IMG/VR virus record: IMGVR_UViG_3300008262_002626
Span: 27,077 to 91,076 of that record
Origin: a virus
Strand: one strand, 5' to 3'
Length of the DNA: 64,000 bases
Part shown: piece by piece, positions 39,623 to 53,074 of the stretch
Numbering within the stretch: position 1 is the first letter of the stretch
How the letters are laid out: each line of letters opens with the position of its first letter
The notes under the pieces: generated by a model
The model's input: only the letters and a program-made list of their open reading frames with translations
The model's database searches: none
What the model was told of the DNA's origin: nothing
Program-made: the position numbers and the translations under genes

Positions 39623-40115
39623 GGGTTATGTAACGCATTATATACAAGCAGGGGCGGTAGGGAGCCTAGATAGTATAGTATTAAGGGGCTGGCCTAACCG
39701 TTAAATACTTGATGATCAACTATAAGATGGTTCCCCTAGCACACGTAAGAGTACGGGATCATGACTATGCTGTATATATTAGTCTATGTCTACACACCCG
39801 TTCAATGCACATATTCAAGTATAATGATCTTTGCTGTGAATATGATGTATTTGATGTGCAGGAGGAGGCCACACGATTTATAGAACAACCATTGCCCAAG
39901 CCCAGAGCCCGATCTAAATAAGAACGATTCGCACGTAAGAACTGTTCTTATCTAAGTTAATAACCCTTGTGTCAACCAGGGTATTTTTTTCTGTGGCTTT
40001 TATGCCACGGGCGAGTGCGGTGTTTGTGGCTCAAAAACAACACTTTTCTAGGCGGATTTTGGTTGACAGTTTGGCTGGGGTCTGCTATACTATAGTCATA
40101 GTGAAGGAGCGAACA

Positions 40116-40439
40116 ATGGCAAGAACCCGTAAAATCCGTTCAGACTGTAATTACATCATCTACGAAGCGGTGGACGAGCATGGTGAGAACTACATTGGGC
40201 TCACACGAAAAGCCACTACCGTAGTCCGTTCAGTCAAAGAGCGGTGGCGTAAGCATCTGTCCAGAGCTCGTAACGAGAATCGCGAGTGGGTACTATATCA
40301 GTATCTAAAGGCGGGTGCCCTGGACTTCCACTGGGAACATAGAGTCCTGGAGATCGTCCGAGGACGCAAGGCGGCCTATGCTCGTGAGCGTGAGATCGTT
40401 AAGATCCAAAAGCCCACACTCAACGATCAGTATCTCTAA
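40116..40439 (+). CDS. GIY-YIG nuclease-like protein
   Basis: IIY...YIGLT...RW.KH...E; RBS GGAGCGA. Confidence 0.7.
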   Translation: MARTRKIRSDCNYIIYEAVDEHGENYIGLTRKATTVVRSVKERWRKHLSRARNENREWVLYQYLKAGALDFHWEHRVLEIVRGRKAAYAREREIVKIQKPTLNDQYL

Positions 40440-40506
40440 GGATTGGTTGACAGCTGGTCCTTAGAGTGCTATACTATAGGCTACAGTAAACGATTAGGAG
40501 CGAACT

Positions 40507-41229
40507 ATGAAACTGTTATCTACAGCCAACCCAAAGATCCAAAAGGGCACCAAGCTCGGCTATTTGAGCTTTATCCTGCATCTTGCACCTGCCCAACTCA
40601 GCGGTAAGGAGACTTGCCCTAAGCGAACCGCAGGCTGTACTGAGGCTTGCCTTAATACCGCAGGCAGAGGGGGCATGTTCCGCAAGGGCGAAAACACCAA
40701 CGTGATCCAGCAGGCTCGTATCCGCAAGACCAAGATGTTCTTTGAAGATCGCGATACCTTTATGGAGTACTTGGAGCAGGACATCAACCTGGGCATCAAG
40801 CAGGCAGCTCGCTTGGGCTTGAAGCCCGTGTTCCGCTTGAATGGTACTTCAGACCTTGCTTGGGAGAAGTATAAGCTCAAAGGTTCGGACATGAACGTCT
40901 TTGAAATGTTCAACGACATTCAGTTCTACGACTATACTAAGGTCCTGGGGCGCAAGGTTAAGGATATCCCCAACTACCACTTGACATTCAGCGCCGCAGA
41001 CGGCAACGAATCAGACGTACAAAAGGCAGTGAGTGCAGGTATGAACGTGGCTGTGGTGTTTGATCGCCTGCCCGAAACTTACCTGGGCCGTGAGGTTATT
41101 AATGCAGACGACACTGATCTCCGCTTTTTGGACCCTAAGGGTACTATCGCAGGGCTTAAGGCCAAGGGTCGTGCTAAAAAGGACACCACTGGCTTCGTGC
41201 GCAGGGTGATTGACATCCAGGCAGTTTGA
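40507..41229 (+). CDS. Gp88-family Cys-cluster protein
   Basis: CP..TAGC...CL, RLNGTSD, FYDYTK, NYHLTFS. Confidence 0.7.
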   Translation: MKLLSTANPKIQKGTKLGYLSFILHLAPAQLSGKETCPKRTAGCTEACLNTAGRGGMFRKGENTNVIQQARIRKTKMFFEDRDTFMEYLEQDINLGIKQAARLGLKPVFRLNGTSDLAWEKYKLKGSDMNVFEMFNDIQFYDYTKVLGRKVKDIPNYHLTFSAADGNESDVQKAVSAGMNVAVVFDRLPETYLGREVINADDTDLRFLDPKGTIAGLKAKGRAKKDTTGFVRRVIDIQAV

Positions 41230-41268
41230 GCTTATACTATAGGCTAAGTTAACAAAAAGGAGCGAAGT

Positions 41269-41547
41269 ATGGACATCAAAGCAATCAACACCGCAATCAT
41301 TTCGGGTAACTTTACCGCTACAGAACTGGACAGCCTGCAGGATGCTATCAAGTTCGCCCGTAGCAAGACTGCTCGTACCAATGCCTTTACTTTCAAGGCT
41401 GGTAGCAAGGCCAAACTGACCCACGATAAGCTGGGTGGCACTGTGGTTGTCACGGTAGGTAAGATCAAGATCAAGAAGGCAGATGTGGTAGTAGATAAAA
41501 CGGGTGCTCGTTACTCCGTCCCACTGTCCATGCTGGAGGCTGTATAA
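41269..41547 (+). CDS. early hypothetical protein
   Basis: own promoter and GGAGCGA RBS. Confidence 0.75.
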   Translation: MDIKAINTAIISGNFTATELDSLQDAIKFARSKTARTNAFTFKAGSKAKLTHDKLGGTVVVTVGKIKIKKADVVVDKTGARYSVPLSMLEAV

Positions 41548-41774
41548 TGAAGACCATACAAGAAATCTTTCCGGGCATTATGATCTACGATACTGAGCCA
41601 GTGGCTGTAGAGAACCCGTTCAGTGGGGAGAGCTATACCCTAAGCCCTGAAGAAGTGGCGGTCTACGACTACCTCAAAGGGTGCGAACTCATTGGTGACT
41701 ATGCAGGTGTCCGCAAGGCCCTGGACTGGTTCATGGATAACAATGCAGAAGCCTACATGGCTCTGCTGGACTAA
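41547..41774 (+). CDS. early hypothetical protein
   Basis: coupled ORF. Confidence 0.7.
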   Translation: MKTIQEIFPGIMIYDTEPVAVENPFSGESYTLSPEEVAVYDYLKGCELIGDYAGVRKALDWFMDNNAEAYMALLD

Positions 41775-41783
41775 GGAGCAGAT

Positions 41784-41985
41784 ATGTACACGGTTATCGT
41801 TTATAAGGTAGACAAGCGGACAGCATACCGTCAAGCATACATGGCGGGCGGCACATGGATTCCGCTATGAGATCCACGAAACTATGGTCACCCGTAAGAA
41901 CCTAATGGGTGGTGCTGAGTATCAGGAGCGGTTCGATACGCCCAGGTACTGTAGCCCTAGTTCAGAAGCCTACTGGTCAATGTAG
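41784..41985 (+). pseudogene. frameshifted small early gene
   Basis: SD plus ATG frame stops after 28 aa; an overlapping frame continues to YCSPSSEAYWSM*. Confidence 0.55.
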
Positions 41986-42117
41986 TACCAAGGCCCCCAT
42001 CGCCTGGACCCTCTCCATAGGACTTGGGTTCTGCAACCGGGGGCCTTCCTTTTAATCACCCGCCAAAACCGACAGGCACCCTCGACGTCCACCCCCTTTA
42101 AGTTCGAACATGTGTAT

Positions 42118-42146
42118 ATTATACCCTCGTGGGCCCAATCTGTCAA
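42118..42146 (-). promoter_or_regulatory. inverted copy of the early promoter
   Basis: GGTTGACA-17-TATAATATACACAT on the minus strand. Confidence 0.85.
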
Positions 42147-42254
42147 CCGAAAGGCCGGAATACCCGAGTAACCTGTAGGGTCTTTAGACATAGGGGTTGA
42201 CAATTTGGGCTAGGTATGTAATAATACACATACTGCAACAAAGGAGCGAACTTT

Positions 42255-44943
42255 ATGCAAACAAACTGCCTAGCCCGTGCTACACTAGTAAAAAGCCGTA
42301 AATTGCAAAATACGCAATTTTATAAACTCAAAGTAGCATTTAATGTTACGCAAGTAAACCCTGTCACCGGCAAGTATATTTTCCCTACACAAAAAGCCTG
42401 CGCTTATGTAAGCGGAGACATACAAATAGACGAATTAGGGCGTGTGCTTGTTAATGTGCAAAATGTTATCCGTAGCAAAAATATAGAACTTGTATAACTT
42501 GTAGGGTTATTGCACAGCAAGTTGACATTTTGGACTTGCTGTGCTATAATTGTTTTTTAAGTAGCAAAAGGAGCGATAAATGCAAAAACTTACACTAGTG
42601 CGTTACGAACGTGACGAAGACTGTATTATTACAGAGTTTGCTTGCGAATATGCAGTTACTACAGCTGGAGACGGCTTGTGGGGGTGCGAAGCAGGTAGGA
42701 AAGTAAATGTTACAGGTATTACTATTATTAATAACATTTACGACGGCGAGATTTATACGCAAGTAAATGTTACACACGACAGTACTTGGGACATTTATAC
42801 AGACACGGGTTTTGAAACTGCTATTAGCGACGCTTTAGGCTTTGCTGTTACATTTACAGAACAAGGTATGCAAGACGACGAGTTTGCGAGTATGGAAGCA
42901 TAAAACAAATAGCACAGCACAGTTGACATTTTGGCTGTGCTGTGCTATACTGTTGTTTTAGTAGTTAGAAGGAGCGAAAATGCGTAAAGTAGACAAGGTG
43001 CTAGCACTGCTAGCAGAGGCACGTGCATTGTGCGACGAGCTTACTATTGACGGTGTTAAGTTTGGTGAGGACACAGACTGCGATAACGCTTTTTATGACG
43101 TGTTTGAGAAGCTGGATACTGCACAGGAGGCAGTGGGCTTTTACTTTGATTTGGAATAAGGAGCGACAATGTTGACAGCAAAACAAAAAATTGAGAAGTT
43201 GCAGGAAGCTATTGCACTGCTACAAGATGTAGATGCACTACAGCAAGTAGGCATGGAAGGCTTTGACAGTGACGTGTGCTATGAATTGCACAATGAGATT
43301 GAGAACATTATAGACACGCTAGGCGAGGCTATAGGGGAGTTAGAGGTAGAGAATGCTTAATAGTATTTTAAAGTGGACTGCGCTTGCGGCAACGCTGACG
43401 GGTGCAGGCTTCACTGCCTTTGAGCTACACTTTGCCAACAGAGAGTTGCTGGCACTGGGTAGCCTGCTGTACTTGGTATGGAGTGTACGCATTAGAGAGG
43501 CTAACTTGATAGCTGTTAACGCAGGCCTATTAGCCCTATACGCTGTAGGGTTATTCTTGAAGTAGGTTGACTGTTTGGGCTAGGCTTGCTATAATTTGGG
43601 CATAAGGAGCCGTTATGTACAATCAAGTCAAGCTAGCCCGTTTTGCCGCTAAAAATAACCTTACACTTTTCCAGCTTATTGAATACTGGAACTTTTTCGA
43701 CGAGGACGCACCTGCGGACATTGTCCAAGCATACGAAGCATTTTTTGCGGAATATAGGGACAATGTACAGGAGGAAGTCCGCATGGCACTAAAATAACCC
43801 TTCGGTTGACAGGGCGATCGTTTGGTGCTATAATATACACATACTAAAGGAGCGAACCTATGTTAAATGTCGATAAAGTAGCCCGGGTCTATTCCGGCAA
43901 GATTGGTTGTATGTGTGGTTGCAAGGGCAAGTACACCTACAATGAGGGCGTGGCCCACGAGGACTGGCAGGGTGCGGTCAATGTGCGTACCGTGCGTCTG
44001 TTCACCAAGCAGGTCTTGTCTCACCCTAATGTCAAGTGGGAAGACAATATTGCTTTCGTTGAGGAAGCAGGCCGCATTAAGGTTGTATTCTTTAAGGAGC
44101 AGGAATGATAACTGCTGACACGCTGAGTCGTATGACCACCTTCTCTGCAGAGGGCCTTACCGCCCTTATCCGCAAGGCCGGCTACAAGAAGGACAGCTTC
44201 AAAGAGGCCCAGTTCCTGGGCATAACCAATGGTGGGCAATACTGTTACAAGGTGCTCTACTTCGATGGGTTTATGGGCGAGGATGCTTGGACTAAGGTGT
44301 TCGTAACGCATGACCAGTTTGAGCAGACTACTGTAGCAGACTACTAGGTTGACAGATTGGCTAGGGTGTGCTATAATATACACATACTAAGGAGAGCGAC
44401 ATGGCACTAGTAGACGGACAAAGAGTTAAAGTTGGCGACTGGGTCTGCTTTAAGAGCGACATAGAACAGTCGGGTAGGATTACTGCAATCCTCAATGGCA
44501 ACAGGCTCGTACTTGAAAACCCTAATGGCTTCCAGGGCGATTACATTGGCGGGCTTGAAACTACAATGCAGTCAGCGGTTGACTGTTGGATAGAGTGACA
44601 GTATAATACAGTTAATGGGCGGTACAGGCAGTCCTAGGTAATACCTTAATGCAGAGTCAAATCAAGTGCGTGCCTACTCTGCGCCCACCCTTCAACAAAC
44701 AAGGAGCGAACCATGCGAGTACAAGACCTAATTGACGAGCTGAAGGCATATGACCCTGAAGCTGAAGTGCATTTCCACTATAACTATGGCGACCACTGGC
44801 GTACCCAAGTAGCACCCAAAGTCACCGAAGTGTTTGACGGCCCTGTAGAGTACAGTGAGTACCACCGTATGCACAAGCTGGCTGACGAGGACTACGACGA
44901 CGAGTGTGGCGAAAATACTACACGGGTTGTGATCATTGGTTGA
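42255..44943 (+). CDS. series of small early hypothetical ORFs (42255, 42580, 42980, 43169, 43353, 43615, 43860, 44105, 44401, 44713)
   Basis: most have their own promoter and/or a GGAGC-type RBS. Confidence 0.75.
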
Positions 44944-45000
44944 CAAGTTGACCAATTGAGCATACAATAGAGTTATAGTAAACAACTAGGAGCGAAACAA

Positions 45001-45468
45001 ATGGCTACACGTTCAACTATTGCGCTGGAATTTGCAGACGGTACTGTTCAACAAGTCTACTGCCACTGGGACGGTTACTTGGACAACAACGGCAAACTCC
45101 TGCTCAACAACTACAAAGACCCTTTCAAACTGCGTGACCTTATTGACTTAGGCGACATTAGCTCGCTAGGTCCTGAGATCGGCGAGAAGCACGACTTTGA
45201 CATTCCGCACAAATACGGTACACCGGAGTACGAAGCGGAGCAACGGGTGCGTCAGGGCATTACTACTTTCTACGGACGTGACCGTGGCGAAGAAGGCACC
45301 CAAGCCCGTAAGTTTAAGGACTACGCTGACTATCGTGCCAATGCACAGTTCGAGGAATACAACTACTGCCTGCGTAAAGACGGCAACTGGTATGTTGAGT
45401 TCTACGGTCGCTTTGACGGCTTGCTGGAGCAGGCTATTATTGAAGCAGAAGCAATGGAGGCAGCATGA
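45001..45468 (+). CDS. conserved phage protein (MATRS...YCHWDGY)
   Basis: promoter, RBS and a recognisable motif. Confidence 0.75.
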   Translation: MATRSTIALEFADGTVQQVYCHWDGYLDNNGKLLLNNYKDPFKLRDLIDLGDISSLGPEIGEKHDFDIPHKYGTPEYEAEQRVRQGITTFYGRDRGEEGTQARKFKDYADYRANAQFEEYNYCLRKDGNWYVEFYGRFDGLLEQAIIEAEAMEAA

Positions 45469-45669
45469 AAGCCTATGTAACTACTATCCTGCGTCAAGAG
45501 ATTGAAGTACCTGAGGGTTGGGACCGTATGGATGTGTTTGACTTCCTTGGAGAGTATCAGAGCTTTCGTACCGCCTTCCAGGGTGTAAGCAACGAAGATC
45601 AAACAGCTCGTATCATTGACGTAATGGTCCTAGAAGAAGAAGTTACTGAACTTGGCGAGGAGGCCTACG

Positions 45670-45825
45670 ATGACTAAATTTTGGATGGTAACTGAAGACC
45701 CGATGTATGACGAAGACGGGCAACTGGTAGACGAGGACTACATTGACCCAGATGAGTGGGACGAAGCATTTCCTCCGGAAGAGATCGACGAAACCTACGA
45801 TCCTTTTGAAACTGTTAATAGCTAG
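45670..45825 (+). CDS. very acidic 51-aa protein
   Basis: GAGGAGG SD; 19 D/E and 1 K. Confidence 0.6.
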   Translation: MTKFWMVTEDPMYDEDGQLVDEDYIDPDEWDEAFPPEEIDETYDPFETVNS

Positions 45826-45843
45826 TTCGCTCCTAGCACGGCC

Positions 45844-45873
45844 AGACCCCCTCCGACATGGGGGTCTTTTTTT
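45844..45873 (+). terminator. rho-independent terminator
   Basis: AGACCCCC/GGGGGTCT stem plus T-run. Confidence 0.85.
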
Positions 45874-46515
45874 GGTTGACACCTAGCCCAAACGATGTTA
45901 TAATATACACATACTAAGGAGAGCGACATGCAGATCGAAGGACTGAACAAAACCCAGCGAGCCCTAGCAGACATCATGTGGGGCATGGACAGCAAGGATC
46001 AGGTCACAGCATTCATCGGATCACTGCGTGGACAGCAACAGCGTGACGCCCAAACCGTGCTAGAACTGATGCTGTTAGCCATTTGGGACGAGTGCGAAGA
46101 TACCCAGGATGCCTGTAGGGTTATTGATCAGTTCCGGTTGACAGACTGAGTCCAATTTGCTATACTATAGGCTAAGTTAAACAAAAGGAGCGACAGATGA
46201 ACATAGCAACTATCGAACAGTATGTGGATGGTATCAACCGTTGGGGTGCCCTGTTTGGTAACAAACCCCTGAGCCTGCTCAACGCCAAGGACCGTCAAAA
46301 GATTGCAGATCGCATTGACTCTGACCTTAGCCCTGAGAACTTGACCTGCGATGGTGAACTGCCCCGTAGCCAAGTCCAGCAACGCTACCAGTTCCTGACC
46401 CGTGCGGCCCGTGAACTGCAAAGCATTGACCCTTCAGTAACCTTTTACGAATTCAGTTGACAATAGGGCCGAAAGGCCCTATAATTGATACATACTTAAA
46501 CACAAGGAGCGACTT

Positions 46516-47151
46516 ATGCCAAATTGGTGCAACAACACACTAGAGATTACCCATCCTGATCCTGCTATGATTGAGCGGGCGCGGGTGGCATTCGCAGAGG
46601 GCAGACTGCTTGACGAGTTTGTGCCTGTGCCCAAGGACTTGCATATCGTAGCGGGCCGTGTAGGTGCCGACAACGACCCTAAACAGATTGAACTAGAAGC
46701 ACAAGAGAAGAGCAACCTAGACAAGTATGGCTACAAGACTTGGTATGACTTCTGTGTCAACGAATGGGGCACCAAGTGGGATGTAGGTGGCGATGGCTAC
46801 GAAGCACAGGATATCCCTAACGGGTTGATCATGTCGTTTGATAGTGCATGGGCCCCTCCTTGCAATGCCTACGAGAAGATGTTGGACTTGGGTTTCAGCA
46901 TCCGTGCTACTTACTACGAACCCGGTATGGCTTTCTGCGGTGAGTGGGAAGACGGTAACGATGACTTCTACGACATCAGCAACATGACTAGCGATCAAGT
47001 TCGTGACCTGTTGCCCGAGCATCTCGATGAATCCTATGGTATTAGCGAGTGCATTGCCGAGTATGAGAATGAAGAAAAGGACGAGGTCCAAACATGGTAT
47101 GAAGAGGGTGTGGAATCAAAAGGATTGGAGCCACACAAAGTAAATGAGTAA
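46516..47151 (+). CDS. YubB/DUF1281-like ferredoxin-fold protein
   Basis: MPNWCNN, WGTKWD, FDSAWAPP, YYEPG. Confidence 0.8.
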   Translation: MPNWCNNTLEITHPDPAMIERARVAFAEGRLLDEFVPVPKDLHIVAGRVGADNDPKQIELEAQEKSNLDKYGYKTWYDFCVNEWGTKWDVGGDGYEAQDIPNGLIMSFDSAWAPPCNAYEKMLDLGFSIRATYYEPGMAFCGEWEDGNDDFYDISNMTSDQVRDLLPEHLDESYGISECIAEYENEEKDEVQTWYEEGVESKGLEPHKVNE

Positions 47152-47489
47152 ACTAGAGATCTACCTAAGGCCGCTGGTGCTGTTTGATGCAAGTAACAAA
47201 GAGCACCGGCAGCTCTACTTTAACTATTTGGCAACAGGTGGTTGGGCAGGATGTCCATATCGGTTCGCTATAGCAGAAGATTATGGGAACTTGATTGGAC
47301 ATATACAGCGAGAGCTTTTGGAATACTATATGGGCCGCGAGTTCAAAGGTAAGATCAAAGAAACAAGAGTTTTGGTTCGCCAAAAGAAGAAGAAAAAGGT
47401 TGACAACTGACCCAAATAGTTGTACAATATGGACATGCTAAGGAAACTGGCATAAACTAACTAAACCACACACAGAAAGAGGTATTAAA

Positions 47490-47849
47490 ATGGCTACAGA
47501 TAAATTGTTTAACGTTTGCGGTGTTTCGAAGCTTGATGGTGAGTACAAGGTGCGCTTTGCTACTGACATCATGCGTATCAAAGTACTTGCTAAACACGGT
47601 CACGAAGACATTCGTTTGGCTGAGTTGGACAAGGCTGTTTCTAAGTACGAAGCAGTTACTCAGATCAAGACCATGGCTGAGTTCGCTGATGCGGCTGCTC
47701 AGGCTGCTATCGCTGAGTACCTTGAGGACAAAGCACCTAAGGCTCCTAAAGCTAAGGCAGCTCCTGCTCCTAAGGCTAAGGCTGCTAAGGCACCTGCCAA
47801 AGCTACTAAGGCTAAGGTTGAAGCTGATCTCGAAGACGCACCTTTCTAA
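47490..47849 (+). CDS. protein with Ala/Lys/Pro-rich (histone H1-like) tail
   Basis: KAPKAPKAKAAPAPKAKAAK. Confidence 0.7.
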   Translation: MATDKLFNVCGVSKLDGEYKVRFATDIMRIKVLAKHGHEDIRLAELDKAVSKYEAVTQIKTMAEFADAAAQAAIAEYLEDKAPKAPKAKAAPAPKAKAAKAPAKATKAKVEADLEDAPF

Positions 47850-48104
47850 GAGACTAAACAGAACGGCCCGGGTGCGATTCCCGGGCATCACTTCATATAC
47901 ACGACTAACATGAGCTGGACGCAATACGAAGTTTGGGCCGAAATGGATGGCCACCAAGAACTGATCGAAACCACACATTCCCGGAAAGAAGCAATAGCAC
48001 TAGCAGAGAAGACATTCAATGACGGGTGCGATTTCGTGGAAGTATTTGAAGAAACCAGTGATGGTGACTACCAATCAATCAAACAACTAAGTAGATAGAG
48101 TGTA

Positions 48105-48181
48105 GGGCCTATAGCTCAGTTGGTTAGAGCAGTGGACTCATAATCCATTGGTCCCTGGTTCGAACCCAGGTGGGCCCACCA
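48105..48181 (+). tRNA. tRNA with CAT anticodon, probably Ile2 (lysidine type)
   Basis: cloverleaf, GACTCATAATC anticodon arm, GGTTCGAA, encoded CCA. Confidence 0.9.
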
Positions 48182-48186
48182 ACATT

Positions 48187-48263
48187 CTGCCCTTAGTTCA
48201 GCTGGATAGAACAACGGCCTTCTAAGCCGTAGGTCAGAGGTTCGAGTCCTCTAGGGCAGGCCA
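48187..48263 (+). tRNA. tRNA-Arg(TCT)
   Basis: CTGCCCT/AGGGCAG acceptor stem, CTTCTAA loop, encoded CCA. Confidence 0.93.
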
Positions 48264-48362
48264 ACACAGGGTGTTGTATTAATACAACATCCTTTTCTTT
48301 TGGTTGACAGATTGGCTAGTCGGTGCTATAATATACACATACTGAAACATTAGGAGCGAACA

Positions 48363-50085
48363 ATGATCAGAGTCTTTAATTCAGCAAACCCCGGTTCCGA
48401 GCAGATCCTCGACGAGCAAGATGTTACAGTTCGTGGCATCCGGCTCAACGCATTCAACGAACCCATCCTCACTTTCGCCCACCCAGACTTCCCTTTAGGA
48501 GATCTCCGTGCTACCTACTCGGGCACGATTTGGCAGTGCGATCTTGATTGACAACCGGACCGTTTGGGCTTATAATATACACATACTAAGGAGAGCGATA
48601 TGATTACACTAGAAACTCGAGAGAACTATGATACCACCCACGGCGGCCCATTTGACCGTGGCTCAGCAGACAGCTACTACGGTCGCCCACGTGATCCGCA
48701 CTGGTATCCAGAGGGCACCTACAACGGTGAGCGCATCACTAAAGATGCTATGACTCCTCAGCAGATCCAAGCCTACCTCGCAGGCTACCAATACAATGAG
48801 CAGTTCGGTGACAAGAAGGACTGGGGTTAATATGGAACTCTTCAAAGAAGACCTCAAGATGCTGGGCTATGCCCTAGTGGTCTACGCTGTGCCCTTGACG
48901 ATCTACTGGCTTTTTATTGGTTGACAGTTTGGGCCCGTGGTGCTATACTATAGGCTAAGTTAAACAAAAGGAGCGAACTATGATGCTAGTAATCCGTACA
49001 CAATACATGGAAAACTATGGTGCCCACGACTGGGACGGTACTGGTGCTTGCCCCCAGTACTGGAAGTTCAAGGGCGGTAGCGAGTACAAGGTCGTTGGCG
49101 TTCCTCTTAACATCGACTACGCAGAAGTGGTCGCTATGGCGGGTGTAGAAACCGACAACGACTACTGCCGTGAGTATGTCCTGGATTGGAGCATCGAGGG
49201 CGATGACTACCTCTCCGAGTTCGAGAAGAGTCAGCTGGAGTATGAAGGTGAGATCCAGTTCAAGGAGCCTGTGATCGAATACGCAGAGCTCAACGATCGT
49301 TACGAAGATCCCCGGGCCTATGCAGAAGCAGCCGCTGATGCCGACGCCCAATACTATGGAGCCTAATATGACTGACATCCTAATCCTAGCCTTTCTCGAA
49401 ACTATTGAACTCTGGGCTTTCCTGAGCATACTGGCAATAGCCCTAGCCTTTGAAGGGTTAATCAACTGGTACAGATCTAAAACGGTTGACAACCCATCCA
49501 TTTGGTAATATACTATAGGCTAAGTTAAACAAAAGGAGCGAACCATGCAATACACTGTAGAACAAATCCGAGACATCGTAGCTGAAGCTAGCACTGCCGC
49601 TACTGAAGCCGCAACCCTGTTCTTCCAAACTCGACTAGGCGGCCGTGATCAATACGCCTGTGGCTTTGCCTGGGTAGACATCCTGGGCATCAAAGGCAAC
49701 ACCAAGCTGGGCCGCGCAATGAAAGAGGCAGGCATCCGCAAGAGCTACACTGGATCATTCCAATTGTGGAACCCATCAGGTCTGCCCGTACAGAACGTAG
49801 ACACTCTGGAAGCGGGTGCAGATGCGGCCGCTAAGGTCTTCCAGAAGTATGGTTTCACTGCCTACGCTGGTAGCAGACTGGACTAAGGAGCAGACCATGA
49901 GCAACCAATGGCGAGTAGGTTTTACTGTATATTTGAACGATGCTATGACCGAAACACAATCAGATCTAACCAATCTGGAGACTGTGGTCACAGCATTCCA
50001 ACCCAGCCAAGCAGAAGCTATGGTCCGGGCACAGTATAACAATAGAGCACATATTTGGTACTGTCGCCCAGCCGAATGGGCTTGA
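48363..50085 (+). CDS. series of small early hypothetical ORFs (48363, 48600, 48980, 49545 and others)
   Basis: promoter plus RBS cassettes. Confidence 0.75.
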
Positions 50086-50138
50086 CAACTAGACCAAGCG
50101 ATCTTATAATTAATGTTTTACACACAGGAGCGATTTAA

Positions 50139-51023
50139 ATGGCAAGAGTTATGACCCTAGCGGCAGTTACTGAAAAGACTCGTTCAAAGCGTTCAGGCAC
50201 CAGTGAGAGCCTGGAGATGGAGCCTATTGAGAAAGTACTAGTAGAGTCAGATGAAGAAATCATGAACCGTTTGGCTGCTCGTTTCGAAATCCTTATGGAG
50301 ATGACACGTGCCGTTAAGAAGGGCGATGTTCGTGCAATGATCGTATCAGGCCCTCCGGGTGTGGGCAAATCGTTTGGTGTTGAGCAGGTCTTGTCAAAGC
50401 ATGATGTGTTTGCAGATGTAGCCAACGATACTAAACTTAAGAAGTACGAAGTGGTCAAGGGTGCTATGAGTGCCATTGGTTTGTACAAGAAGCTCTACGA
50501 GTTCTCAGATCGCAAGTGTATCCTAGTGTTCGATGACTGTGACTCAGTACTGCTTGATGACCTTAGCCTTAACATCTTGAAAGCCGCTCTGGACAGCTCT
50601 AAGAAGCGTACCATCCACTGGAACACAGACAGTCGATTGCTACGCACAGAAGGTGTGCCCAATTCATTCGAGTTCAAGGGCGGTGCTATCTTTATTACCA
50701 ACATCAAGTTCGATAATGTACGCTCAAAGAAACTGCGTGATCACTTGGAAGCACTGGAGTCACGTTGCCACTACTTGGACTTGACTATTGATACTGCACG
50801 TGAGAAGCTCCTGCGTATCCGTCAGGTAATCCGTGACTGCGGCATGCTTGATGACTATGGGTTTGATGACACAGTCAAAGCACAGGTCGTAGACTTTATT
50901 GAGCGTAACCAAAAGCGTATGCGCGAGCTGAGCCTGCGCATGGTGCTCAAGGTAGCAGATCTAGCTAAGAGCATGCCACACAAGTGGGAAGCTGTAGCAG
51001 AAGTAACTTGCATGAAGCACTAA
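50139..51023 (+). CDS. AAA+ P-loop ATPase
   Basis: GPPGVGKS Walker A, VFDDCD Walker B, ALESR. Confidence 0.9.
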   Translation: MARVMTLAAVTEKTRSKRSGTSESLEMEPIEKVLVESDEEIMNRLAARFEILMEMTRAVKKGDVRAMIVSGPPGVGKSFGVEQVLSKHDVFADVANDTKLKKYEVVKGAMSAIGLYKKLYEFSDRKCILVFDDCDSVLLDDLSLNILKAALDSSKKRTIHWNTDSRLLRTEGVPNSFEFKGGAIFITNIKFDNVRSKKLRDHLEALESRCHYLDLTIDTAREKLLRIRQVIRDCGMLDDYGFDDTVKAQVVDFIERNQKRMRELSLRMVLKVADLAKSMPHKWEAVAEVTCMKH

Positions 51024-51040
51024 TAAGCTACAGCAAGTAG

Positions 51041-51154
51041 GACAGGCCCAACGATTCGCTCCCGGTAAGCCTGTCAAGACCGAACCCGATTCGCTCCCGG
51101 TATTAGGTCATGTTGTGCCCCAGGATTCCTCCCCGGTTTCCTGGGGTTTTTTTT
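51041..51154 (+). ncRNA. candidate anti-RBS small RNA ending in a terminator
   Basis: three hairpins with TTCGCTCC/TTCCTCC loops, then T8. Confidence 0.55.
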
Positions 51155-52473
51155 GGCCGGAAGGTCGGTCGGTGGTGGTCGGTGGTCTCTCTGGGGGGTC
51201 GGGGTTATATTATAAAAACTGTTGCTATTTTACAACAGTGGCAAGCAAATTTTGGTGGGTATAGACGCAAAATCACCATCATGAATCTATAAGTACTTCT
51301 TTTTAATTTTTCGTACGCTAGAAATTTGCGGAGCAAGGGACCATTTCATGGGCCCAAAAACGACCCCACTAGAACCCTAAGTACTTCTCAAATTTTTTAC
51401 GCGACCAAATTTTTTTATCCTGTAGACCCATTTGGCATATATAGTAAAAGGACACTATCATGCTCATGCTCTACTTTACCGTCGCTGGTTTAATCTTAAC
51501 TCTATGGTTTAACTCAGCCATTCTAGGACTGGCTGTTGCTGGTCTAATTCTAGTGTGGATCGCAGTTATAGCTTGGCGTACACGCAACGAGCCCCACGAT
51601 CCTTCACTGTACTAAGGACTTACATGCATCACGATCCCTATAATCAAACTATAGAATTCAAGGGCAGAACCTATCGCTACGATCCAGATTTTGACTGTTT
51701 TTATCCTGCAGAAGGATCTATGAACACCTGGGATCGTTGGGGTTGGCTTGCTGTCATAGTTGTACTGGCCCTGCTCACATTCATTGTCACACGATGACGC
51801 AGTATGCAGTATTAACAGCGGATCCGCAGTTTCTTGATCTCAGCCGTTTTATTACTCTACACAGCTTACACTACGAACCACACTTAAATCGTACTCGTGT
51901 ATGGATCAGTGATCCTAGAGTTGAGCTACTGTTTCTAGCACAGTTTACTTCTGCGTTTAGGGTTCTAGAATCAGAGTCTATCTAGCTTAACGGTTCTTAG
52001 CTTTTACTTTGACTTTCTTGCCCCACAATGGATCATTATAGGGATTATGGTTAGCTATAGTGCCTTCGTAGTACTCAATTAGACCCCGCCAAGGACCTTG
52101 ATGCACCTGTTTAAGTGCAAACTCATCTGCTATCTGCTGTGCTAGTTGAGGATCTGTTGGTGGCTCTGCGCCCGGGTTCATGTCTACACGAGTTACTGTG
52201 TTACCTTTGCTATTACGTGCTAGTATACGATATGGCATAACTGTTCATTTCCTTGTTGTATATTTAGCCCCAGTTTAGTATGAACCAAACACAATCACGC
52301 TCACGCACAAAACCCACTTGTCCAAACTCTGTGTCGTTAAACCAATCCCATGTAGTACCTTTAGGGCCTATGTGCTGTTCCAACCAATCTTCTATGGCTA
52401 TCACACGATCTATCCAATCTATCTGCGGCTGTGGGCAGGCAGTTTTAGTCCAGTCTACTGAGCAGGTAAACAC

Positions 52474-52905
52474 CTATAGATCCCACATTTCTCTGAGATG
52501 ATCGCAGTAGCGTACTGCTGTCAGGGTCATTTCTGCTGTAAATTCAAAGTGTTGATTTAGTACTGTGATAGCTGGGTGCGGATTTACCTTTAATACTCGT
52601 GAGTAACAGCCCTGACCCATGTCCACAAAGTAACTGCTTTTTATACCTCTGCGCTCCATTAGCTCTGGGAACACCGCACGGGTAAACCAACAGGTATTGC
52701 CCAGTTCCAGTGCTTCTGCTGTAGTACGCAGAGTTAGATAGCGTTCTGCGTAACTGGGTTCGGGTTGCCAGGGATTCTTCGCCAGCTTGTCTGCTAGGAT
52801 CTTTACTGTGTAGTCCAGCACAGGTTCGGGCATGGTCCAACCCTGGCGATCACAGGTTTCTTGGAGTATATCTCGGAAACCCTTAACTGCGGTGTAATTT
52901 AGCAT
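52474..52905 (-). CDS. hypothetical protein
   Basis: 143-aa ORF with SD. Confidence 0.65.
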   Translation of the reverse strand: MLNYTAVKGFRDILQETCDRQGWTMPEPVLDYTVKILADKLAKNPWQPEPSYAERYLTLRTTAEALELGNTCWFTRAVFPELMERRGIKSSYFVDMGQGCYSRVLKVNPHPAITVLNQHFEFTAEMTLTAVRYCDHLREMWDL

Positions 52906-52968
52906 AGTGTGATTCCTTGCTAGATTACTTATTTATTGGTTTTACAGTTCGCGGAACGCTGGTTCGCG

Positions 52969-53074
52969 TTTTACCGCTAGCCGCTTCGCGGATTTGTAAT
53001 TTTACCGCGCTTCGCGAATTCTAAATTTTTGCGCTGACGCTTCGCTTGTTTATTTGGCGTTTTCCGCTTCGCGG
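52969..53074 (-). repeat. cluster of GCGAAGC mini-hairpin motifs
   Basis: GCTTCGC at 52983, 53009, 53039, 53066. Confidence 0.8.

Follow-up and report, generated by a model that had tools for sequence, protein, structure and literature searches.

The window, i.e. the whole 64,000-nucleotide stretch of DNA analyzed here, from an uncultured giant lake phage, carries on its plus strand a block of early genes arranged as cassettes, which closes with a gene for an AAA-type ATPase and, behind it, three consecutive hairpins (Table 1). The promoters of the block follow the sigma70 consensus (TTGACA-17-TATAAT/TATACT), with about 20 of them scoring 11-12 of 12, and identical leaders are repeated across it. 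With a stem-loop, a sigma70-like promoter, a Shine-Dalgarno sequence (SD) and a start codon as its recurrent parts in a plastic region, the block has the composition of a PeSL-type cassette array, and in one case a terminator hairpin stands directly before the promoter of the next cassette. The block also encloses a lone perfect sigma70 consensus promoter in reversed orientation, with no tagged ribosome-binding site (RBS) downstream, and two tRNA genes followed by a plain terminator that has no anti-tag loop.

The heptamer GGAGCGA occurs 17 times on the plus strand and 16 of these copies are the RBSs of genes in the block, each 2-5 nt before an ATG, in line with the initial annotation, which had counted about 16 such genes at 40-51 kb. 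Outside the block the RBS instead has the form GGAGA(A/U)A, and only two of the 34 GGAG-type sites there continue with CGA; thus, GGAGCGA is a class-specific tag. The CGA extension contributes nothing to SD pairing with the 3' tail of 16S rRNA. GGAGCRAAC may also resemble a conserved stretch of 16S rRNA helix 24, a likeness that was dropped as the bases after the tag are unconserved in relatives and the resemblance is same-sense.

The three hairpins and the closing run of eight T were found just where the initial annotation had placed them, as were the two copies of the 16-mer CGATTCGCTCCCGGTA and its variant GGATTCCTCCCCGGTT, and in the RNAfold prediction each of the three motifs lies within the loop of a hairpin. 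The loops of hairpins 1 and 2 present AUUCGCUCC, which includes the anti-tag UCGCUCC. Hairpin 3, with a GC-rich stem followed by a U-run, is an intrinsic (Rho-independent) terminator. When up to three mismatches are allowed, the 16-mer is found in the 91-kb viral contig that includes the window as the two hairpin copies and as one reversed copy, which is the RBS of an opposite-strand gene. The folding energy is ordinary for the composition, with a single-sequence z-score of just -1.3; by itself the fold is therefore no proof, and the case rests on comparative data. A 60-aa ORF that overlaps hairpin 3 was judged spurious since it has no usable SD and conservation tracks the stems, not the codons.

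A single predicted transcript, running from the ATPase promoter to the terminator, holds both the tagged ATPase RBS and the loops of hairpins 1 and 2. Next to none of the sequence words of this region were present in the listed RNA runs, which came from the same sample or study. A second anti-tag hairpin, again followed by a terminator and a promoter, lies inside the early block, and the same arrangement recurs in a relative (G001). About 20 strong early promoters would feed only two anti-tag 3' ends, a ratio that counts against control by such an RNA. Beyond the terminator of the ATPase transcript the window has a tract that is a candidate non-sigma70 promoter or start of the next transcription unit; many relatives likewise have GGGGTCGGGG, a TATATA-like sequence and a TTGTTG..CAACAG hairpin after the terminator.

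Table 1. Positions in the window of the early gene block, the hairpin elements and neighboring features
Feature	Position	Strand	Details
Early gene block	40063-51023	+	about 20 cassettes: sigma70 promoter, leader of about 25 nt, tagged RBS, ATG
GGAGCGA, start positions	40106, 40497, 41259, 42243, 42570, 42971, 43160, 43849, 44703, 44989, 46187, 46506, 48353, 48970, 49535, 50127	+
Cassettes with GGAGAGCGA as RBS instead of GGAGCGA	promoters at 44349, 45876, 48548	+	three cassettes
Reversed lone promoter	42118-42146	-	perfect sigma70 consensus
Second anti-tag hairpin	45821-45837	+	GCUAG-UUCGCUC-CUAGC
Terminator after second anti-tag hairpin	45844-45867 plus T-run	+	whole element 45821-45873; next promoter 45876
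tRNA-Met (CAU) and tRNA-Arg (UCU)	48105-48293
Plain terminator after the tRNAs	48268-48293
ATPase promoter	50082-50110	+
ATPase RBS	50127	+	GGAGCGA
AAA-type ATPase gene	50139-51023	+	phrog_1250; weak Pfam AAA/AAA_16; last gene of the block
Predicted ATPase transcript	50082-51154	+	includes RBS 50127 and loops 51054-51062 and 51089-51097
Three-hairpin element	51041-51154	+	ends in U8
Hairpin 1	51041-51075	+	outer stem GACAGGC 51041-51047 / GCCTGTC 51069-51075
Hairpin 1, inner pairs and loop	51052-51064	+	C51052-G51064, G51053-C51063; loop AUUCGCUCC 51054-51062
Hairpin 1, anti-tag	51056-51062	+	UCGCUCC
Hairpin 2	51078-51109	+	outer stem GACC 51078-51081 / GGTC 51106-51109
Hairpin 2, inner stem and loop	51086-51100	+	CCG 51086-51088 / CGG 51098-51100; loop AUUCGCUCC 51089-51097
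Hairpin 3	51118-51154	+	stem CCCCAGGA 51118-51125 / TCCTGGGG 51139-51146; T8 51147-51154
Hairpin 3, loop region	51126-51138	+	variant UUCCUCCCCGG; CCUCC-like (UUCCUCCCC)
16-mer CGATTCGCTCCCGGTA	51052, 51087	+	variant GGATTCCTCCCCGGTT at 51123
Spurious ORF	51110-51292		60 aa, overlaps hairpin 3
Tract after the terminator	51155-51245		G-rich tract, then GGGGTCGGGG-TTATATTATA, hairpin ACTGTTG...CAACAGT

Invariant loops on changing stems

Relatives of the ATPase number in the hundreds in IMG/VR, where they come from samples of lakes, rivers and the sea, and well over 100 contigs of uncultured aquatic jumbo phages have the element behind this same gene; several contigs of relatives, 300-383 kb in length, are rated complete in IMG/VR. 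Of the 162 plus-strand TCGCTCC sites in the 80 closest loci, 158 fall at most 270 nt past the ATPase stop, and 72 of the 80 loci have two such units. In most relatives the last anti-tag sits in the loop of the terminator, i.e. the loop of hairpin 3 is canonical there. All 126 distinct units fold as hairpins, with the loop AUUCGCUCC in 121 and AAUCGCUCC in the other five: the 7-mer UCGCUCC is invariant, the outer stems come in 114 different versions and the 3-bp inner stem covaries (CCG/CGG, GUG/CAC, CUG/CAG, GCG/CGC, CCA/UGG). For 26 type-A units compared in a fixed register, 96.2% of the cells are paired as against 68.4% after shuffling (none of 500 shuffles being as high), double changes are seen in all seven outer pairs, and the covariation score is 0.74, compared with 0.03-0.16 when the partner is slid.

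In the L101 lineage the minimal loops are exactly UCGCUCC, so tag and anti-tag have identical 7-nt boundaries. Type-A units have an invariant core of 21 nt (CCAACGAUUCGCUCCCGGYAA); as this exceeds what the tag would need, it hints at a further constraint, e.g. a protein partner or loop geometry. The tag is likewise conserved among the relatives: 299 of 310 GGAGCGA sites have an ATG 1-8 nt downstream, and the three positions after GGAG, compared over 421 promoter-proximal sites, hold C in 95%, G in 79% and A in 89%.

Some lineages depart from this layout. Many relatives (L010, L016, L026, L048 and others) have an extra conserved hairpin with the loop AGCAGCC-N-CUAAGAG between the ATPase stop and hairpin 1, which is absent from this window. 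In L283-L301 and similar loci the tag GGAGCGA is kept and the hairpins are replaced by a small Cys-rich ORF directly after the ATPase, with a conserved GKSYC..HY motif; as hairpins are lacking at the ATPase there, any anti-tag element of these phages must be elsewhere. The best cultured relative of the ATPase, that of PA5oct (50% identity), is followed by other genes and the motif is not enriched in that phage. A megablast search of positions 49500-52500 against phage records returned no match, and in an exact 14-mer scan of IMG/VR the matches listed were mostly single and are probably due to chance.

Matched changes of tag and loop between clades

Other tag/loop pairs were found by an alignment-based scan and by a scan seeded from the locus L314. 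A large sister clade, whose ATPase is 67-72% identical to that of the window, uses GAGGGCA as its RBS tag, and the ATPase gene is followed there by 2-4 hairpins with UGCCCUC or GCCCUC loops; among RBS-complementary 7-mers, GAGGGCA ranks first in 31 of 62 distinct loci. In more distant clades the matches span 8-9 nt and are to the RBS of the ATPase itself, with few other genes bearing the tag: L321 pairs AGGAGCUAG with CUAGCUCCU, L340 pairs AGGAGCUAA with UUAGCUCCU, and L337/343/347 pair GAGUGAGA with UCUCACUC. L321 and L340 differ at one compensatory position, where G:C is replaced by A:U. In 60% of 161 distinct loci the RBS window of the ATPase gene is complementary over 7 nt or more to the 3' flank of that gene, as opposed to 17-18% in reversed or same-sense controls. 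Conversely, tag and hairpins are jointly absent from PA5oct and from the clade of L262-269. Clades A (that of the window) and B have 2-8 further tagged genes per 6-kb locus.

The initial annotation had expected the loop to covary with the early RBS among relatives, which holds between clades and fails within clade A: there L101 mostly has GGAGCA and the complete genome G007 has GGAGCG[C/U], both with UCGCUCC loops, so that many of their sites would pair with the loop across just 5-6 nt. An unchanged loop despite drift of the RBS fits a single regulator frozen by its many targets; it is not positive evidence for one.

The predicted duplex of loop and RBS has a median energy of -12.3 kcal/mol on early sites and -5.2 kcal/mol on other genes, while the generic 16S tail reaches -7.9 kcal/mol on the early sites; none of 300 shuffled loops, the control that the initial annotation had called for, separated early from other sites as well. 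Taken together, the invariance of the loop, the covariation of the stems and the matched switches of tag and loop strongly support base-pairing between the hairpin loops and the private RBS tag of the early genes, and on these comparisons the two very probably pair, with control of early protein synthesis as the predicted role. The proposal of the initial annotation that the loops read an RBS barcode thus appears sound as judged from sequence comparison. Its further suggestion that the CCUCC loop acts against host SDs fared otherwise: the third-loop variant UUCCUCCCCGG is present in none of about 130 relatives checked and by predicted energy has no advantage over the generic 16S tail at initiation regions, which leaves that role unsupported.

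The tag also occurs on genes away from the early block. The phage encodes components of curli (type VIII secretion), an observation that also takes in the relatives L257 and L258. A CsgF-like protein (Pfam PF10614, E 2.6e-7) is encoded at L003:955-1500 (-), equivalent to 12579-13124 of contig G000 and outside the window. G001 has a CsgF-like protein (E 3e-15) together with a curlin-repeat protein (PF07012), and a further secreted protein is found in both G001 and G003. These curli-related genes all carry the GGAGCGAA RBS tag, on the late strand and without a sigma70 cassette. The leader of the CsgF-like gene (L003:1490-1562 (-)) includes UACCGGGAGCGAA, 13 nt complementary to the loop and inner stem of hairpins 1 and 2, and its counterpart in G001 has 14 nt complementary to loop and inner stem. 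Upstream of UACCGGGAGCGAA lies an arm, UUCCUCCCCGGUA, which contains the 12-mer UUCCUCCCCGGU of the aberrant third loop of the window and can, by prediction, sequester the RBS of the CsgF-like gene in cis (-16.6 kcal/mol, z -1.7).

A proposed RNA reader of the early tag and its alternatives

We propose that the 3' end of the early transcripts, i.e. the ATPase 3'UTR together with read-through from upstream early promoters, would be a structured RNA of two to three hairpins, each with an open loop that exposes UCGCUCC behind a UCG of U-turn type. The UNR U-turn is reportedly a feature of fast-pairing antisense loops, a pattern with which the invariant 5' UCG of the anti-tag would agree. The anti-tag would pair with GGAGCGA, the private SD extension of promoter-proximal early genes, and thereby hide the SD in a duplex predicted to be stronger than that of SD and 16S rRNA, so that 30S binding would be blocked. 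Anti-SD RNAs that cover the whole SD are known to block 30S binding; as the pairing would cover the SD, the parsimonious expectation is that initiation is repressed. The tagged genes would then be translated less, the ATPase mRNA through pairing in cis and others probably in trans as a stable 3' fragment accumulates, the latter serving as an RNA timer for early shut-off. The structure, its conservation, the class-specific tag and the covariation of tag and loop are observed; accumulation of the RNA, pairing in the cell and repression would follow from them by inference. We regard the model as a whole, from loop-tag pairing through the 30S block and lowered translation to early shut-off, as on the probable side.

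The reach of such an RNA may be judged from where tag and loops occur. Since the loop in distant clades best matches the ATPase's own RBS and the 3'UTR belongs to a tagged mRNA, action in cis is equally possible; the presence of both partners on the ATPase mRNA favors it, on the precedent of icaR (PMC3868564). The second site at 45.8 kb, the many tagged genes and the tagged CsgF-like gene favor instead a 3' fragment acting in trans, as with CcsR (PMC8034643), in which case a discrete small RNA of about 115 nt would be expected. A purely cis-acting autoregulation, in which the 3'UTR loops pair back on the ATPase RBS and the shared tag is a by-product of the spread of promoter-leader cassettes, would sit well with the linkage of the element to the ATPase gene in most relatives and with the distant matches of 8-9 nt, including the compensatory position of L321 and L340, being specific to the ATPase RBS where few other genes are tagged. 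We nonetheless consider it unlikely: the second anti-tag hairpin lies far from the ATPase gene and is kept in G001, further tagged genes accompany the ATPase in clades A and B, the opposite-strand curli-like cluster is tagged too with its complementarity of 13-14 nt, and two to three loops per RNA are more than one RBS needs.

The same covariation of tag and loop would also be expected if the pairing were protective or activating, with GGAG shielded from a RegB-like nuclease or RNase E, or with mRNAs tethered to one another, and T4-type phages do attack GGAG in their early regions through RegB (PMC3014915). Such pairing would nevertheless cover the whole SD, which is established to block 30S binding, and no RegB or RegA homolog was found in Pfam searches of the 91-kb fragment, a weak argument as the control genomes gave no match either; we deem this reading quite improbable. 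An assignment of the hairpins as protein-binding or purely structural 3'-end elements, with the RBS complementarity incidental, would account for the type-A core extending well beyond the 7-mer, for the last hairpin being a canonical terminator and for the indifference of the loop to RBS drift within clade A. However, an incidental match would not recur as four to five tag/loop pairs in different clades, nor would tag and loop be expected to share their exact 7-nt boundaries, which makes this explanation decidedly improbable.

The loops might also be decayed inverted copies of the promoter-leader (PeSL-type) cassettes that arose by recombination, with the match owed to descent: the early block is PeSL-like with repeated identical leaders (PMC4122927), and the CsgF-like gene has a leader that is similar, over 13-15 nt, to the loop's reverse complement. 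This is very improbable, given that the loops are invariant in more than 100 diverged phages while their stems turn over, and that the base preceding GGAG is A in 85% of the sites whereas the loop goes on with C, so that the complementarity stops at the tag instead of running into the A-rich leader. Finally, it is barely credible that the minus strand functions, its GGAGCGAAU hairpins serving as decoys for an RBS-binding protein or ribosomes, as the initial annotation had allowed for: the minus strand does fold about as well as the plus strand (-49.4 vs -48.4 kcal/mol, with unit means of -14.6 vs -15.5), but a T6+ run follows the last hairpin on the plus strand in 77 of 80 relatives, marking that strand as the RNA, G:U pairs show a modest bias toward it (171 vs 112) and no promoter-like site reads into the hairpin region from the right.

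Returning to the RNA reader of the early tag, a wider form of it, which we advance tentatively as plausible though short of probable, is that these aquatic jumbo phages address translation by RNA alone. A private SD extension would mark the early block and selected envelope genes, e.g. the curli-like cluster, a multi-loop RNA from the end of the block would read the mark and time the shut-off, and the pair would have been replaced as a unit several times, giving rise to orthogonal channels. If the control by RNA is real, a large group of environmental giant phages governs a whole temporal gene class in this manner, and the timing of phage development would gain a new layer; T4 achieves such control of its early class through the proteins RegB and RegA. 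It would also explain an early-gene SD extension that is useless for 16S pairing, and would provide a natural set of RBS/anti-RBS pairs that are orthogonal to one another (GGAGCGA/UCGCUCC, GAGGGCA/UGCCCUC and others).

Relationship to known RNA regulators

Rfam searches of 47500-53000 at E up to 5 recovered the two tRNAs and sub-threshold chance matches (anti-hemB at 18 bits, E about 1), with no match to the C4 family, and our literature search found no paper describing this hairpin element, for which there is no Rfam family. The element forms a clean RNA family, as yet uncatalogued and hundreds of members strong, and suits an Rfam-type model.

The closest architecture is that of the Cuckoo/CcsR1-4 (alpha-r14) sRNAs of Alphaproteobacteria (PMC4615179, PMC8034643), with which the phage element has in common 2-4 adjacent hairpins, a shared C/U-rich loop of anti-SD type and highly variable stems: there are three hairpins here and two to three in relatives, with 114 stems around an invariant loop. 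The loop sequences differ, however: the Cuckoo motif is CCUCCUCCC, whereas the phage loops read AUUCGCUCC (UCGCUCC) and only the third is CCUCC-like. The Cuckoo RNAs are, moreover, chromosomal and lie behind a DUF1127 gene, while the phage element is viral, lies behind an AAA ATPase gene and has no Rfam match; unlike Cuckoo, it fits a private RBS tag that marks a temporal class of genes and changes from clade to clade. In icaR of Staphylococcus aureus the 3'UTR contains an anti-SD motif that base-pairs with the mRNA's own SD (PMC3868564), with a translation block and RNase III cleavage demonstrated for that pairing, and by sequence prediction the ATPase mRNA would similarly carry both partners, with the anti-SD in its 3'UTR. 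While icaR involves one motif and one gene, the phage has multiple loops, a second site and about 20 tagged genes.

Among phage systems, the c4 antisense RNA of P1 and P7 has loops that pair around the RBS of a phage mRNA and block its translation (PMC12197685). c4 acts on one antirepressor operon in temperate phages, in contrast to a class-wide tag in jumbo phages of virulent type. The RegB endoribonuclease of T4 inactivates early mRNAs at GGAG (PMC3014915) and is comparable in logic, in that an early class is marked via the SD region and switched off post-transcriptionally; RegB is a protein nuclease, whereas the reader of the phage tag would be an RNA. As far as the available parts of the PeSL literature extend, the PeSL cassettes of T4-like phages combine a stem-loop, a near-consensus sigma70 promoter, an SD and a start codon, and the early block of the window resembles their arrays in plastic early regions (PMC2839356, PMC4122927). 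They are described there as recombination and regulatory cassettes, and those parts of the description contain no anti-SD loop matched to a tagged SD. What is new here within the theme of anti-SD RNAs is an element that is viral and is matched to a private RBS tag, one that marks a temporal class of genes and can be switched in the course of evolution.
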